DNA from: a virus
Taxonomy: Duplodnaviria; Heunggongvirae; Uroviricota; Caudoviricetes
Virus record (IMG/VR): IMGVR_UViG_3300023290_000040
Reading direction: 5' to 3' (one strand)
Length of the DNA: 10,424 nucleotides
Shown: in pieces, positions 2,543-10,416 of the stretch
Layout of the letters: every line of letters starts with the position of its first letter
How positions within the stretch are numbered: the first letter of the stretch is position 1
Notes under the pieces: generated by a model
What the model saw: the letters and a program-made list of their open reading frames with translations, nothing else
Database searches by the model: none
What the model was told of the DNA's origin: nothing
Made by a program: the position numbers and the translations under genes

Positions 2543-3373
2543 ACCGGACTCCTCCTGCGATCCCTTCTGATACTGTCATCAGCATTACGTCATCCTCCGT
2601 CATGTCCGCCACATCCGGGGAAGCGGGGATAACTTCATTCCCGTCCGGGCCAAAACGAACGCCTCCGGCAAGCCCTGCCGCTTTCTGCATCAGCACATCA
2701 TCTTCAGGCTCTTCGTCAGCCTCGCGCCGGTTCAGCAGACTGAAATCCAGCGGATGCATATCCGGATCGCTGAAAAACAGGCTGAGCACGGTGTACGTCA
2801 GCCCGGAAAAGTGCATATCCAGCAGAACATCATGAAAATAATGGGTACTGTAAAAGCGGTGCCAGTCGGCATACTCCGTGGATGACATCCCGGCAAGCAT
2901 GGCACGCCAGTCGGGTCGCCCCATCTCGCGCGCCAGTTTCAGGGCAAAACTCAGCTCACCGTCGAACACTTTCCCGCAGAAACAGGCTCTGCAGGCCCGG
3001 AGTCCTCTGCCTGGTCAGGGGCATCATTCACCACAAACCCATACATACCGGACAGCCGGTACACCACGTTTTCAGCATGAGAAATTGCCTCCGCGGGCCA
3101 GGTGGTAAGCACTTCCTGCTCAATCTGTTTAACGGCTTCATTCATGGAAGGCTGCTTTGTCTTCTGCGGATGGTTATGCCACAGGGACATCGCCACCACA
3201 AAAGCACCGGTTCTGATGGCGTCTTCCACAGTAACCTGCCGGTTGCTGTCTGACTCCGCCTGTTCTGCCTGCTGTTTCATCAGGGCGAGATGCTCAATAC
3301 GCTGCAGGGCTGACAGTTCAGAAAGCGTGACGGTCACACCGTTATGTTCAAATGATTCGGTTTTCAGGAACAT
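2535..3373 (-). CDS. GT: Tail assembly chaperone G-T fusion made by programmed -1 ribosomal frameshift (lambda gpGT homologue)
   Basis: The T frame (2535..2969) is open for 144 codons but has no ATG or RBS of its own; its first codon is the GTG immediately 3' of the slippery site. A -1 slip at G GGA AAG (2975..2969) joins the G frame to the T frame, giving ...SAGK-VFDGELSFALKLAREMG.... T stop TGA at 2537-2535 overlaps the H start. Confidence 0.85.
2951..3373 (-). CDS. G: Tail assembly chaperone G (lambda gpG homologue)
   Basis: 140-aa ORF, same length as lambda gpG, sitting between V and T/H. Its C-terminus (...SAGKCSTVS) contains the slippery heptamer in frame. ATG at 3373-3371 is preceded by a GGAG Shine-Dalgarno. 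Confidence 0.88.
   Translation of the reverse strand: MFLKTESFEHNGVTVTLSELSALQRIEHLALMKQQAEQAESDSNRQVTVEDAIRTGAFVVAMSLWHNHPQKTKQPSMNEAVKQIEQEVLTTWPAEAISHAENVVYRLSGMYGFVVNDAPDQAEDSGPAEPVSAGKCSTVS
2969..2975 (-). promoter_or_regulatory. Slippery heptanucleotide G GGA AAG for -1 frameshifting between G and T
   Basis: Plus strand reads ctttccc at 2969-2975, reverse complement GGGAAAG. In the G frame the codons are GCG GGA AAG (A-G-K), an X XXY YYZ pattern, located 6 codons before the G stop. Same heptamer and position as the lambda G/T frameshift site. Confidence 0.85.
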
Positions 3374-5858: not shown

Positions 5859-6887
5859 TTATTTCACCTGTACCACCACAAACTCATCCGGATCCGGCAG
5901 CACCATCAGCGGAGCGGACTGCGTCATGGTGAATTCACAGGACGGATCGCCCACGGTCAGCCAGTGTTTCGGGTAACGGGAAGAAGCCACCACTCCTTCA
6001 GACAACGCCTGTGCATCCTTAATGGCACCATAGCAACGAATCCCCTCTGCCGCCGTATTCCCCAACACCAGCATGCCCTCCGGCAGATAACGTTTTTCGG
6101 TACCGTCCTCTGCCACATAAGACGTTTTCGCCACCACAATGGCCAGATCGCCGTAATACCCCTTGAAGGACACCACTGCGCCCAGATCTTTCACTGCCGT
6201 TTCGAGTTGTGAATTTGAGCCGCGACGGGTATCCAGTTTTTCGCGGAACAGCTTAAAGCCATTCAGCAGACGCCAGACCGTACCGTCCATAATGGCGATA
6301 TTCACAAGGCCGCTGGCCTGATCGCAGTAGAGGTCAATATCATGCGTCGGATCAAACGTATCACGGTCCTGCTCAGACCATTTTTTACCGTCAGCCTGCT
6401 CAATGTTATTTCCTTCAGAGCGCCCGAAATCCACCTCGACAGTATCAAACTGATCCCCTTCCATGGTGTATTTGCCATACAGCACGGCATTCACCGCCTG
6501 CATTTCTTCCACCTGGACAATGGCGTGCTCTTCCTGTTTGAGGTTATCGGTAATGATACGCAGACGACGGTAGGCCGGGTCGTTCAGCTGAGCCGGATCT
6601 TCACCAGGAAGGCGCTCAACCGCCTGCTGGTAATTAAATTCGTGTTTCGGCTTGACGTAGCCCGGACGCAACACGCGGGTTTCACCACCACGATGACGCA
6701 GCACTTTTCCTTCAACAACCGGGGAGACATAGGCCGCCACCGGCGTTTTTCCGGTAATTTTGTCCAGCATCACCTCTTCGGTGTGGAAATTCACCGTACG
6801 GCGGAAAAACAGCTCCAGAAACAGCGCACGGAATTTCACTTTTTGTTCGGTATAACCGAGTAACTGGCGGGTCGTAAACAATCCCAT
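5859..6887 (-). CDS. E: Major capsid protein (lambda gpE homologue)
   Basis: 342 aa against 341 in lambda. Long colinear matches to gpE as recalled: ...TPGYVKPKHE...RLP.EDP..L.DPAYRR.RII...QVEEMQAV.AVL.GKYTM.G...LDTRRGSNS.LETAVKDLG...TMVLGNT...TMTQSAPLM.L.DPDEFV.VQ. AAGGA Shine-Dalgarno upstream of the ATG at 6887-6885. Confidence 0.95.
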   Translation of the reverse strand: MGLFTTRQLLGYTEQKVKFRALFLELFFRRTVNFHTEEVMLDKITGKTPVAAYVSPVVEGKVLRHRGGETRVLRPGYVKPKHEFNYQQAVERLPGEDPAQLNDPAYRRLRIITDNLKQEEHAIVQVEEMQAVNAVLYGKYTMEGDQFDTVEVDFGRSEGNNIEQADGKKWSEQDRDTFDPTHDIDLYCDQASGLVNIAIMDGTVWRLLNGFKLFREKLDTRRGSNSQLETAVKDLGAVVSFKGYYGDLAIVVAKTSYVAEDGTEKRYLPEGMLVLGNTAAEGIRCYGAIKDAQALSEGVVASSRYPKHWLTVGDPSCEFTMTQSAPLMVLPDPDEFVVVQVK

Positions 6888-6944: not shown

Positions 6945-7292
6945 TTACGGCAGCGCCGCGTGACTCAGGGCACTGCCAGCAAAGGCGTTGGCCTTTTTGT
7001 GTTCATCCACACTTTCAGGCCAGTGGATTGCCTCCGTCGCAAAGGTTCCCGACTTGTAATACGTCAGCGCCGTCTCTGTGCCTTCAAGCGGCAGTACCAG
7101 TATGCCAACCGCACTACCGGCTTTCTGTCCGTCCCAGACCACCAGTTTCCCGGTGGCTTCATCCAGCATCAGGGGCGTCAGTGCCGGTGTTGGCGAGGAA
7201 ATCCCGCTGCTGCCTGTGGCGGTATGAGCCGGATCATTACCGGCAAAAATACGTACTTCCGCACGCTGTTCAGTGATGGTTTTCGTCACCAT
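6945..7292 (-). CDS. D: Head decoration protein (lambda gpD homologue)
   Basis: 115 aa. Motifs NDPAHTAT, TPLMLD, KLV.WDG, AVGIL, YKSGTF and AFAG match lambda gpD as recalled. AGGAGG Shine-Dalgarno 9-10 nt upstream of the ATG at 7292-7290. Confidence 0.93.
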   Translation of the reverse strand: MVTKTITEQRAEVRIFAGNDPAHTATGSSGISSPTPALTPLMLDEATGKLVVWDGQKAGSAVGILVLPLEGTETALTYYKSGTFATEAIHWPESVDEHKKANAFAGSALSHAALP

Positions 7293-7328: not shown

Positions 7329-7931
7329 TCATGGCATGGCCATGAGCATTTTCACGTCCGCATCACCGTCTGCTGACGTCTGTGACACGCCACCCCGCAC
7401 CGCTGCCGGTGAATGATTCGCCATGAAATGTTCAAACAGGGCGGTTGTGGATGCAGAGACCGGTTCGGCCTTACCTGATCCCGCAGCCAGCACAGCCCGG
7501 GCGTTCTCCACGGTCATTCCCGGGCAGGCCGCCAGTTTTTCAGCCTGCGCTTCTGCCCCTTTTGCCTCATCCAGGGCCATGATCTGATCACGAAGCGAGG
7601 GCCCGGCATCCGCCAGTGGTGCAGCCGCCAGGATCGGGCGGGCTTTTTCCACCGTCATCTCCGGCATCGCCGCCAGCGTTGCCGCCAGTTGTTCACGACC
7701 GTTCGCTTCTTCACACGCCATAATGCGATCGGCTTCACTCTGCGCGGATGCCACCGGCTGCTGCGGTGCCGCCGCGGCCAGAATCGCCCGGGCCTGTTCA
7801 ACGCTCATGCCCTGTTGTCCTGCCAGCATCGTGGCAAGCTGTTCACGTCCTTTCGCTTCCTGGCATGTCAGGATCCCCATCACTCGCTGGTTCTCCTGCG
7901 CGGCGGCTTCCGTTGCAGTTAATTGCGGCAT
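7329..7931 (-). CDS. Nu3: Nu3-like scaffolding protein from an in-frame internal start within C
   Basis: Internal ATG at 7931-7929, in the C frame, is preceded by GGAGGCACT (strong Shine-Dalgarno). The product begins MPQLTATEAAAQENQRVMGIL..., colinear with the lambda Nu3 start as recalled, and would be 200 aa. Lambda has the same nested C/Nu3 arrangement. Confidence 0.7.
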   Translation of the reverse strand: MPQLTATEAAAQENQRVMGILTCQEAKGREQLATMLAGQQGMSVEQARAILAAAAPQQPVASAQSEADRIMACEEANGREQLAATLAAMPEMTVEKARPILAAAPLADAGPSLRDQIMALDEAKGAEAQAEKLAACPGMTVENARAVLAAGSGKAEPVSASTTALFEHFMANHSPAAVRGGVSQTSADGDADVKMLMAMP

Positions 7932-8834
7932 AGTGCCTCCTCTGACATTACTGTTCAGCGCCGTGGCCATCACACTGATGGCATCCGACGCATTGATTAA
8001 TTCATCCGCCAGCCCGGCCTCAATGCCGGACTGACCTTCAAAAACGGCAGCCTCTGTTCCCGTGACGGCATCAACAGACAGACCGGTATACATCGCCACT
8101 TTTTCGGCAAACATCCGGCGCGCCGCATCAATCCGCTGCTGCATGTCCTGGCGAACCTCTGCCGGCAACGCTTCAAACTGATTGCCATCCACCTTGTGCG
8201 CCCCTGAGTAAATCAGCGTGATATCCACACCGGCCTGCGCCAGATGACCGGCATAGCTGACATGGCTCATCATCACGCCAATGGAGCCGATACGGGATGT
8301 CTGGGTAACCAGCCGTCGGGAGCAGGCCGACGCCAGCAGCATGGCTGCAGAACAGGCCGTGTCATTGCACAGTGCCCAGACCGGCTTCTGCTGACGGAGG
8401 CGGTAAATCATGTCAGCGCAGTCAAACGCGCCGGCGGCCTGCCCGCCCGGACTGTCAATGTCCAGCAGTATGCCCCGCACCTGGCTATCTGCCATTGCCT
8501 GCTGAAGACAGGCGACAATGCCGTCATAGCCAGTCATTCCGGAAAATGGCCGCATCCCCCCCAGCCGGTGCACCAGCGTGCCGGTCACCGGCAGTACCGC
8601 AATACCGTTCACCACCCGGTAAACACGGGCCGGTCGTTTACCTCCGGCCATGTACTCGTCCGTTTCAGCCAGCATCCCGGGAGCATCAAGCTGTACCTGC
8701 TGTTGCGGTACCGAAAGACTTGCTGCCCCCATCTCGCGCCCCAGCGCGCAAAAGAAAACCCGCGCATAGGCGGGCTCCAGAAGCAGCGGTTCATTGAATG
8801 CTGCTGCAATAATGTGTGAAAGATTACGTCTCAC
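7329..8834 (-). CDS. C: Head maturation protease / minor capsid protein C (lambda gpC homologue, S49/ClpP-like) with scaffold-like C-terminal extension
   Basis: 501 aa. The N-terminal 290 aa match lambda gpC as recalled (AFNEPL.LEPAYARVFFCAL, MTGY.GI, GILLD.D.PGG, AGAFDCAD.I, KPVWAL, SRRLVTQT.R.GSIGVMM, ITLIYSG.HKVDGN, GLSV, EAAV, AGLADEL). The apparent start is a GTG at 8834-8832 that overlaps the B stop. The C-terminal part carries three tandem Nu3-like repeats. Confidence 0.9.
   Translation of the reverse strand: MRRNLSHIIAAAFNEPLLLEPAYARVFFCALGREMGAASLSVPQQQVQLDAPGMLAETDEYMAGGKRPARVYRVVNGIAVLPVTGTLVHRLGGMRPFSGMTGYDGIVACLQQAMADSQVRGILLDIDSPGGQAAGAFDCADMIYRLRQQKPVWALCNDTACSAAMLLASACSRRLVTQTSRIGSIGVMMSHVSYAGHLAQAGVDITLIYSGAHKVDGNQFEALPAEVRQDMQQRIDAARRMFAEKVAMYTGLSVDAVTGTEAAVFEGQSGIEAGLADELINASDAISVMATALNSNVRGGTMPQLTATEAAAQENQRVMGILTCQEAKGREQLATMLAGQQGMSVEQARAILAAAAPQQPVASAQSEADRIMACEEANGREQLAATLAAMPEMTVEKARPILAAAPLADAGPSLRDQIMALDEAKGAEAQAEKLAACPGMTVENARAVLAAGSGKAEPVSASTTALFEHFMANHSPAAVRGGVSQTSADGDADVKMLMAMP
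7479..7889 (-). repeat. Three imperfect in-frame tandem repeats (about 140-160 nt, 37-45 aa each) in the C/Nu3 scaffold region
   Basis: Protein repeats are RVMGILTCQEAKGREQLATMLAGQQGMSVEQARAILAAAAP, RIMACEEANGREQLAATLAAMPEMTVEKARPILAAAP and QIMALDEAKGAEAQAEKLAACPGMTVENARAVLAAG. The matching DNA units are visible on the plus strand (…gccagcatcgtggcaagctgttcacgtcctttcgcttc…, …gccgccagttgttcacgaccgttcgcttcttc…, …gccagtttttcagcctgcgcttctgcccctttt…). Confidence 0.8.
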
Positions 8835-10416
8835 GTGGTGTTGTCTCCTCTTCCGGCCTGCGACTCTCCGCTATCTGCTGCTGATACGCCTGCGCTATCC
8901 ACACCGGACGTGAGAGTCCGGCTTTTTCCCGCTCTGCAGATTCCCTGACCTGCTGGCGGAAAATGTCCTGATAATCCTCGCCCATCAGCGCCAGCTCTTT
9001 CTCATACGTGCTCAGTCCGGCCTCAATGCGCATCACTGATTCCTGGACTTCCTTGAGCCCGTCAATGGCCATTCTTCCGGCTCCAATCCACTCAGCCCGT
9101 GACCAGGCTGATCGCGCCTGATAAAAATCAAACCGTGCCCGTGGCGGACGAATAATCCCCCGAAGAAGTGCCTCTTCCAGCCAGCAGGAAAACATCTGCG
9201 TGGCCAGCCGGGCCGCAATAAATTTTCGCCGCCCCATAAAATAGCGCCACGACTCATTGGCGGAGGCGCGGGCACTTGAGTAACTGACCTTCGAGTAATC
9301 ACGGGACAACTGTTCGTAGGAAACGCCAAGACCGGCGGCGATATACCGCAGCAGCGCCTGTTCAAGCGCCGAAAATCCATTGTCTGAATCCTGCGCGGTC
9401 TGAAGTTTCAGATCATCACCGGGGAAAAGGTGCGGAATTTTGACACCGCCCAGCGTCACGCTATTCGTGTCATACCAGGTGGAGAACTTATCCAGAATAT
9501 TAATAAGCGGATTATCCTTCTGCCCCTGCGGCGCACCGGCGATATATTCAAAGGCCTTTTCGGTATCAAGGTCACTTTCAATCGTCGCTGCATACATCGC
9601 CTTCACTATGGCCGACTGAAGCTGTGTTGCCTGCAGGGAATCGAGCATCTTCAGCCGTTCCATGACGCTGTAAAACTGATTAGCCCCACGGGTCTGCCCG
9701 TCCTCCACCGGCTCGAAAATATGCAGCATGGCCGGACGCCCGGTGGGAAGTTCACGCGGGATCCGTTCCCATCGTCCACTACCAGAGAACGGAAAATCAT
9801 CCTCACAGATATGGTACGCGACGGCACGGCCATATCGATCGACCTCCACACCGGCCCGCAGAAAACGGTTCCCCATACCGTGTCCAGGCGTGTCCACCCG
9901 TTTCGGACTCACGGCTTTAAAACGCGTACGGAATAACTGCGTGGTTTCCGTATCCCAGACCGGCTGCACAAAGATTTCGCCGTTAAACGCATGAACGCCC
10001 ACACCTTCACGGATAAATTCCGTAAACGTGCGTTTCCCTTCCACGTCGATCTCACCAAACATCCCTTCTGCGTATTCTGACCAGGCCGCCTCCACCTCAT
10101 CGACAAAACTTTTTGCCGCGGTCTCCCGCATCCCCAGCCAGCGCCAGTTCGGACGGTAGCTAATCAGAAACATATGCCCGACAATGTGATCCTTATGCAG
10201 GGCCACCGCATTGGCCGCTATTCCGTTATTGCGCACCAGATCATCTGCACGGGCATTCCCCAGACGCAACGCGGGCAGCAGGGCCGCATCGGCACTCTGC
10301 GAGGGTGGCAACCACTCTGCCATTTGCCCGCCAAATCCTGCACCGCCACCGGTGTAGCTGAGGCTCTCCCGAAGCGGAACGCCGTTCACATCAATCAGGA
10401 CAGGCGTTCGTTTCAT
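8824..10416 (-). CDS. B: Portal protein (lambda gpB homologue)
   Basis: 530 aa against about 533 in lambda. Extensive colinear matches to gpB as recalled: GFGGQ, ARADDLVRNNG, RTFT..IREGV..HAFNGE.FVQ, IPRELP.GR, EPVEDGQTRGAN.FYSVME, LQSAIVKAMYAATIES, LRYIAAGLGVSYEQLSR, ARASANESW.YFMGRRKF, WIG.GRMAIDGLKEVQE.VM.IEAGLSTYEKE. GAGG Shine-Dalgarno upstream of the ATG at 10416-10414. Confidence 0.95.
   Translation of the reverse strand: MKRTPVLIDVNGVPLRESLSYTGGGAGFGGQMAEWLPPSQSADAALLPALRLGNARADDLVRNNGIAANAVALHKDHIVGHMFLISYRPNWRWLGMRETAAKSFVDEVEAAWSEYAEGMFGEIDVEGKRTFTEFIREGVGVHAFNGEIFVQPVWDTETTQLFRTRFKAVSPKRVDTPGHGMGNRFLRAGVEVDRYGRAVAYHICEDDFPFSGSGRWERIPRELPTGRPAMLHIFEPVEDGQTRGANQFYSVMERLKMLDSLQATQLQSAIVKAMYAATIESDLDTEKAFEYIAGAPQGQKDNPLINILDKFSTWYDTNSVTLGGVKIPHLFPGDDLKLQTAQDSDNGFSALEQALLRYIAAGLGVSYEQLSRDYSKVSYSSARASANESWRYFMGRRKFIAARLATQMFSCWLEEALLRGIIRPPRARFDFYQARSAWSRAEWIGAGRMAIDGLKEVQESVMRIEAGLSTYEKELALMGEDYQDIFRQQVRESAEREKAGLSRPVWIAQAYQQQIAESRRPEEETTPRET

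Follow-up and report, generated by a model that had tools for sequence, protein, structure and literature searches.

The window analysed here is a stretch of 10,424 nt from a tailed phage (Caudoviricetes; IMG/VR record IMGVR_UViG_3300023290_000040). Its long open reading frames (ORFs) that match phages are all on the minus strand and follow the head-tail gene order of lambda (Table 1). The DNA is about 93–96% identical to that of phage 21 over the head genes; over almost the entire length it is 91–95% identical to that of phage 21 and of the phage-21-like E. coli phages ev017, 4A7, D2, 1W, 3W and the PhiR series. As expected of the lambda C/Nu3 type, the C/Nu3 gene has the portal gene on one side and the decoration and major capsid genes on the other, and head-completion and tail genes follow downstream of the major capsid gene.

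Table 1. Features of the head-gene region of the window, with the evidence for each (positions on the 10,424-nt window; aa numbering of the 501-aa protease).
Feature	Window positions	Strand	Protein or source coordinates	Evidence or remark
Portal	8824-10416	minus		ORF; name from phage 21/lambda annotation
S49-family prohead protease with C-terminal scaffold part (phage 21 gene 5, lambda C homologue)	7329-8834	minus	501 aa + stop	ORF
Shine-Dalgarno AGGAGG	7936-7941	minus		Sequence; 4 nt before the internal ATG
Scaffold gene (phage 21 gene 6, lambda Nu3 homologue)	7329-7931	minus	200 aa + stop	In-frame ATG at 7931-7929
Unit 1	7764-7895	minus	aa 314-357; core aa 321-355 (7770-7874)	HMM match, 81 bits
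Tri1 box	7761-7864	minus	M81255.1 5542-5645	Maps onto unit 1
Unit 2	7620-7742	minus	aa 365-405	HMM match, alignment
Tri box	7614-7724	minus	M81255.1 5682-5792	Maps onto unit 2
Deletion-prone segment in unit 2	7624-7688	minus		Alignment with E. coli 98205 L006
Unit 3	7479-7601	minus	aa 412-452	HMM match, alignment
Tri3 box	7470-7583	minus	M81255.1 5823-5936	Maps onto unit 3
C-terminal tail	7332-7478	minus	aa 453-501	Conserved F-x-x-F-M..SP and terminal (L/M)LM..P; alignment
Decoration protein D/shp	6945-7292	minus		ORF; name from phage 21/lambda annotation
Major capsid protein E	5859-6887	minus		ORF; name from phage 21/lambda annotation

Pfam places a Peptidase_S49 domain (PF01343) at aa 146–293 of the 501-aa protein (E = 3.7e-35), and the protein matches PHROG 53, head maturation protease (6e-230). 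Its Ser162 aligns with the serine of the 'maaSgg' motif of B. subtilis SppA, which is the established nucleophile of that enzyme, and is invariant among the window protein, lambda C and phage 21 gp5. Within the protease gene, the internal ATG with its AGGAGG defines a predicted nested scaffold product of 200 aa. Both phage 21 records, that of the head operon (GenBank M81255.1) and that of the complete genome (OL657228.1), mark this start with its ribosome-binding site and draw the nested scaffold coding sequence likewise. Given this nested start, the repeats described below belong both to the predicted scaffold and to the C-terminus of the protease.

The first-pass annotation of this DNA had pointed to three successive in-frame copies of a motif at 7479–7889, within the Nu3-like part of the gene. 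This is what we find: an HMM made from the units matches the 501-aa protein three times without overlap (aa 314–355, 365–405 and 412–452), at 78–81 bits each, and the matches span 7479–7895, inside the nested scaffold gene. The copies are diverged, in-frame versions of a helical motif of 35–44 aa, and their ungapped 35-aa cores (aa 321–355, 371–405 and 418–452) are spaced with periods of 50 and 47 aa. Local BLOSUM62 scores between units are 81–103, while shuffled sequences score 23 on average (SD 4.6), which gives z = 12.7–17.3; not one of 2000 shuffles equalled the observed score of a unit pair.

The copies were also said to be diverged in DNA and old, and both statements hold. The cores are 54–63% identical in protein and 59–67% identical in DNA, with identity at third codon positions down to 34–37%, which argues that the duplication is old. 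Because the copies have diverged this far at the DNA level, Tandem Repeats Finder and a seed-based DNA repeat search are blind to the array, and neither reported one of the unit period. Although synonymous sites are saturated, the residues EA-G-E..A..LA...M-V-E-AR..LAA are kept in all three units; unit 3 has GAE where the others have GRE. The motifs of the C-terminal tail that follows unit 3 are common to the three-unit homologues.

Three such repeats have been annotated before. In M81255.1, the repeat_region features of phage 21 gene 6 are called "Tri1 box", "Tri box" and "Tri3 box" and bear the remark 'function unknown; putative'. The 1506-nt gene is collinear between that record and the window, without indels (conversion offset +5271), so the Tri box features land on our three units. 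Phage 21 genes 5 and 6 resemble the window in the gene pair itself, in the nested start and in having three repeats at equal positions. The gp5 proteins are 98% identical, the 11 substitutions in 501 aa being allelic differences only, and the Nu3 parts are 96% identical in DNA; the closest relatives of the Nu3 part are E. coli chromosomal prophages, at 99.7%. The three repeats are thus very probably the Tri boxes of phage-21-type head genes, produced by an ancient in-frame duplication of a helical module of about 40 aa. We found no discussion of the Tri boxes in the literature searched, which excluded the original phage 21 head-gene paper (presumably Smith and Feiss, Gene 1993).

How common are three units? 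The uninterrupted 600-nt three-unit segment is present in all 19 phage genomes of this Nu3 type and in 1870 of 5426 complete E. coli genomes, or about a third, where it occurs at 2922 places in all and up to five times per genome. Using an intact unit-2 segment as the query for counting deletion-free copies in the complete genomes, we find it at 2844 of these places, about 97%, in 1807 genomes. S49 peptidases of Salmonella enterica with about 55% identity in the scaffold part also keep three units and the tail, the latter as F-x-x-F-M..SP ... LLMSIP. In E. coli and Salmonella, this lineage normally has three units. The triplication is not unusual, against what the first-pass annotation implied: because close relatives share the three repeats, which phage 21 carries under the name of Tri boxes, they are an already known and ordinary property of phage-21-type head genes. 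Having stood for decades in the public phage 21 record and being common in E. coli prophages, the triplication carries little weight as a discovery.

The three-unit gene also lies on plasmid records, at eight places in complete E. coli genomes. One of them, NZ_CP082081.1 (a record of 149,988 bp; hit H102), has it at 99.7% identity. These carriers may be phage-plasmids.

Lambda offers the nearest well-known comparison. Like the window, it has the gene order portal, C/Nu3, D, E and a nested scaffold gene, with the 131-aa Nu3 read from an in-frame internal start. Lambda C is 59% identical to the window protein in a full-length alignment and 54% identical over aa 3–344 by tblastn. However, its 439 aa contain a single unit, at aa 357–398, which shares the conserved motif ENSRIMGILNCEEAHGREEQARVLAETPGMTVKTARRILAAAP with the window protein, and its low-complexity linker from the Nu3 start to the unit is 36 aa longer. 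The single copy in lambda agrees with what the first-pass annotation had stated, and so does the explanation of the extra length as repeat expansion: the window protein has two added units, and BLASTP aligns each of the three to the one lambda segment. The C-terminal tails of lambda and of the phage 21 type show no significant pairwise similarity (z = −0.25), and we rejected homology between them on this score. We also rejected the lambda tail as the remnant of a second unit; a MAFFT alignment places its DRLM and PLAAGNP under unit 2, and its gapped local score against shuffles is z = 0.37.

A search of 1.84 billion cluster representatives with a profile of the unit matches 378 clusters (50% identity) at E ≤ 0.001, and 131 of the best 150 of these have one unit. 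The family pattern reads ..IL..EA.GRE.LA..LA...M.V..A...LAAAP. Among 49 full-length proteins with a single copy, 47 have the unit ending 41–80 aa ahead of the C-terminus, and unit 3 of the window, ending 49 aa before the C-terminus, fits this family placement of 40–80 aa. Eight distant full-length members were tested, and each has an S49 domain. Of the scaffold (Nu3) part of lambda-type S49 protease/scaffold proteins, the unit alone is conserved; one copy is its common state, and three copies mark one enterobacterial lineage.

The relationships among the units suggest how the array arose. Unit 1 scores above units 2 and 3 against both the lambda unit and unit 1 of distant homologues, and is by these scores orthologous to the single lambda unit. 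Units 2 and 3 are nearer to each other than to unit 1, so that they appear to have been inserted later, between unit 1 and the tail. From this orthology and similarity, the likely order of events is a single ancestral unit, the insertion of a second and the duplication of that second unit. At least one two-unit case, P0170, is independent. The S49 protease/scaffold proteins of a second lineage in E. coli (P0284 and P0290) have nearly identical units 2 and 3, which suggests recent duplication or gene conversion there, in contrast to the old, diverged units of the window.

Pfam and NCBIfam families have no match over aa 300–501, and neither a 3-unit nor a 50-unit profile finds a sequence match to the unit in the PDB. 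The lone PDB profile match, to a de novo designed helical repeat protein, was set aside as a sum of weak matches and not homology. AlphaFold runs with a single sequence and with 15 sequences gave low-confidence models (pLDDT 63 and 56, pTM 0.31 and 0.23, respectively). In both models helices lie inside the units with a short turn at P-G-M-T, low-confidence linkers run between the units, and the C-terminal tail is predicted, again at low confidence, as two short helices. The predicted picture is one of beads on a string and not of a single compact domain; since model confidence is low, it is built on secondary structure only. Foldseek searches of PDB and BFVD with these low-confidence models returned nothing with E below 0.7.

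We considered two known folds. The pattern L..PGMTVE.AR.IL and faint Foldseek matches of the low-confidence models to the helix-hairpin-helix regions of RecR and RuvA (E ≥ 3) recall the helix-hairpin-helix, and we treat this as a lead only. Membership in that fold was rejected: the G-h-G signature lacks its second glycine here, the turns being PGMT, QGMS and PEMT. The Pfam helix-hairpin-helix families do not match the unit even at E ≤ 10, and the 50-sequence unit profile finds no helix-hairpin-helix protein in the PDB. The scaffolding protein gp8 of phage P22 has a helix-loop-helix coat-binding domain at its C-terminus. This small hairpin of helices, close to the C-terminal end of its scaffold, serves as our working analogy for the Tri unit, although the P22 domain is single and terminal whereas the unit in the window is repeated and then followed by a 49-aa tail. 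Neither PDB sequence search nor Foldseek matches the unit to a gp8-type domain; the fold test is weak because the models are of low confidence.

The nested arrangement itself has counterparts elsewhere. In herpesvirus UL26/UL26.5 and phage Mu I/Z, an internal start yields a scaffold that corresponds to the C-terminal part of the protease, and the protease enters the procapsid through the part it shares with the scaffold. These systems have proteases of other families, and we liken them to the window for their nested logic. In lambda, Nu3–Nu3, Nu3–C and Nu3–E interactions have been described (PMC3224144). Because the part shared by lambda C and Nu3 joins scaffold, protease, portal and capsid protein, we read the unit as a protein-contact module; by this analogy it is most likely a protein-interaction module.

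It is tempting to assemble these elements into a mechanism. Each unit would be a small helix-helix-turn-helix module carried on flexible Pro/Ala/Gln linkers, and its contact could be with other scaffold molecules in self-association or with the inner face of the major capsid protein or the portal. Through the shared C-terminal part, the protease would travel with the scaffold into the procapsid, as for lambda C/Nu3. Three units would then make a longer or more multivalent scaffold and leave the T=7 lambda-like capsid unchanged. We give this joint scheme of helical contact module, protease delivery through the shared part and multivalent scaffold with T=7 kept an even chance of being correct. 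A bolder version, which we offer tentatively and consider rather doubtful, is that the Tri unit forms an interaction domain of the scaffold in its own right, with copy number as a tunable parameter of valency. If this is true, alleles with one, two, about 2.5, three and four units would differ in scaffold–capsid or scaffold–scaffold avidity, in assembly fidelity or in protease loading. The unit lacks a Pfam or NCBIfam model and a solved structure, though it is conserved in at least 378 clusters, and the natural alleles with one to four units are a convenient set with which to study the contacts that a lambda-type scaffold makes with capsid, portal and protease.

Such alleles came from the 120 closest database homologues, among which the length variants fall in the repeats. 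In-register deletions of one unit, with three distinct breakpoints, leave two units and 451–452 aa (P0094, P0086 and P0110); a 29-aa deletion leaves 472 aa; a 19-aa deletion within unit 2 leaves an allele of 482 aa; and a 50-aa duplication yields four units and 551 aa (P0002 and P0003). One exact 482-aa sequence, P0032, is on at least 1000 contigs. The 482-aa allele also occurs in a complete genome, that of E. coli 98205 (locus L006, 1204–1283), and in none of the 19 isolated phages. It lacks 57 nt, corresponding to window positions 7632–7688, and the deletion is bounded by 8-nt direct repeats, CTGGCGGC, at 7681–7688 and 7624–7631. The prophage alleles with two, about 2.5 and four units, which are rare, arise by recombination or slippage between the repeats themselves or between CTGGCGGC microhomologies. 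Since natural alleles are missing unit 2 wholly or partly, three units may not be strictly required.

These alleles also speak for an alternative to a contact module, namely that the extra units are neutral spacer expansions, leftovers of unequal crossing-over in a flexible Ala-rich linker that are tolerated and unused. In the same direction, lambda functions with one unit, and the AlphaFold models show no compact fold. However, this view does not sit well with the way the units evolve. Among the window, phage 21, PhiR5_1 and E. coli GE3, dN/dS is 0.16–0.26 in the Tri region and 0.07–0.23 in the protease domain; each unit, at about 0.2, is constrained like the protease. The motif residues persist in three units whose synonymous sites are saturated, Salmonella retains all three at about 55% identity, and all three are kept in about 97% of the copies in E. 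coli and in each of the 19 isolated phages. With third positions near random and the protein conserved, all three units are held under purifying selection at the protein level, and we think it improbable that the added ones are neutral.

The same comparison brings out a difference within the array. Against PhiR5_1 (L004) and E. coli GE3 (L005), dS in unit 3 of the window is 0.87, compared to 0.06–0.09 in unit 2 and 0.09–0.14 in the protease part. This jump points to a recombination boundary inside the repeat array and to unit 3 as a mosaic, alternative allele.

A further possibility, raised in the first-pass annotation, is that copy number tunes scaffold stoichiometry or the size of the capsid. 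Scaffolds do act as size determinants in other phages, and this analogy is all that speaks for the idea. The genomes of three-unit phages measure 42.9–54.4 kb, a range that brackets the 48.5 kb of lambda, and their major capsid protein has 342 aa, the length of lambda E, to which it is 61% identical end to end. Lambda-21 hybrid phages with the head genes of phage 21 are viable at lambda-length genomes. There is no sign of a different capsid geometry in three-unit phages, and an effect of repeat number on procapsid size seems very unlikely.

There is next to no chance that the repeats act in DNA or RNA, as CII-binding sites, as a promoter or terminator, or as structured RNA. TTGYN6TTGY matches at 7679–7692 and 7913–7926 on the plus strand are annotated as CII sites in OL657228.1, and one terminator-like hairpin lies on the plus strand at 7625–7641; against this, the longest DNA words common to the units do not exceed 10 nt, Rfam gives no match, and the protein is conserved while third positions are 34–37% identical. 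The TTGYN6TTGY count is also that of chance (2 against 1.92 expected), so the CII-site annotation inside the scaffold gene is probably pattern noise. A sequencing or assembly artefact, by collapse or expansion of the repeat in the window, has equally negligible probability, as the first-pass annotation had held: nothing in the window favours it, although three relatives (P0001, P0169 and P0161) do look artefactual, and the 1506-nt gene with three units recurs in phage 21, sequenced twice independently, in 17 other phage genomes and in about 1865 complete E. coli genomes, with the 600-nt segment at equal length throughout the 19 phages and these bacterial genomes, so that the agreement of many independent genomes excludes it.

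The odd relatives themselves deserve a brief description. P0001 (657 aa) has a 156-aa duplication that reaches back into the end of the protease part, and it may be an assembly artefact. P0169 (844 aa) and P0161 (582 aa) are lambda-like S49 protease/scaffold proteins joined either to the N-terminal domain of a tape-measure protein or to minor tail protein L, and are probably chimeric gene calls or misassemblies. P0185, a homologue of 258 aa from the representative library, shows systematic changes of Ala to Val, Thr to Met or Ile, Ser to Phe or Leu and Pro to Leu. This is the pattern of C-to-T converted DNA, as from a bisulfite-type library assembled as native, and the entry is a database artefact.

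Elsewhere in the window, the tail genes show two minor features. By phage annotations, the tape-measure (H-like) gene lies on the minus strand and runs past the window start. Many plus-strand ORFs of 80–153 aa with Pro/Ala/Ser/Cys-rich translations lie at 1–2500; they look like antisense artefacts of this gene. On the minus strand, the heptamer GGGAAAG at 2969–2975 stands just ahead of the stop of the G-like tail chaperone ORF (2951–3373) and where the overlapping T-like ORF (2535–2969) begins. Over the whole window the heptamer occurs as often as chance predicts (2 observed, 1.97 expected), so it is position that makes the argument: the placement is the layout expected of the lambda G/GT programmed −1 frameshift, and GGGAAAG is a candidate site for one.
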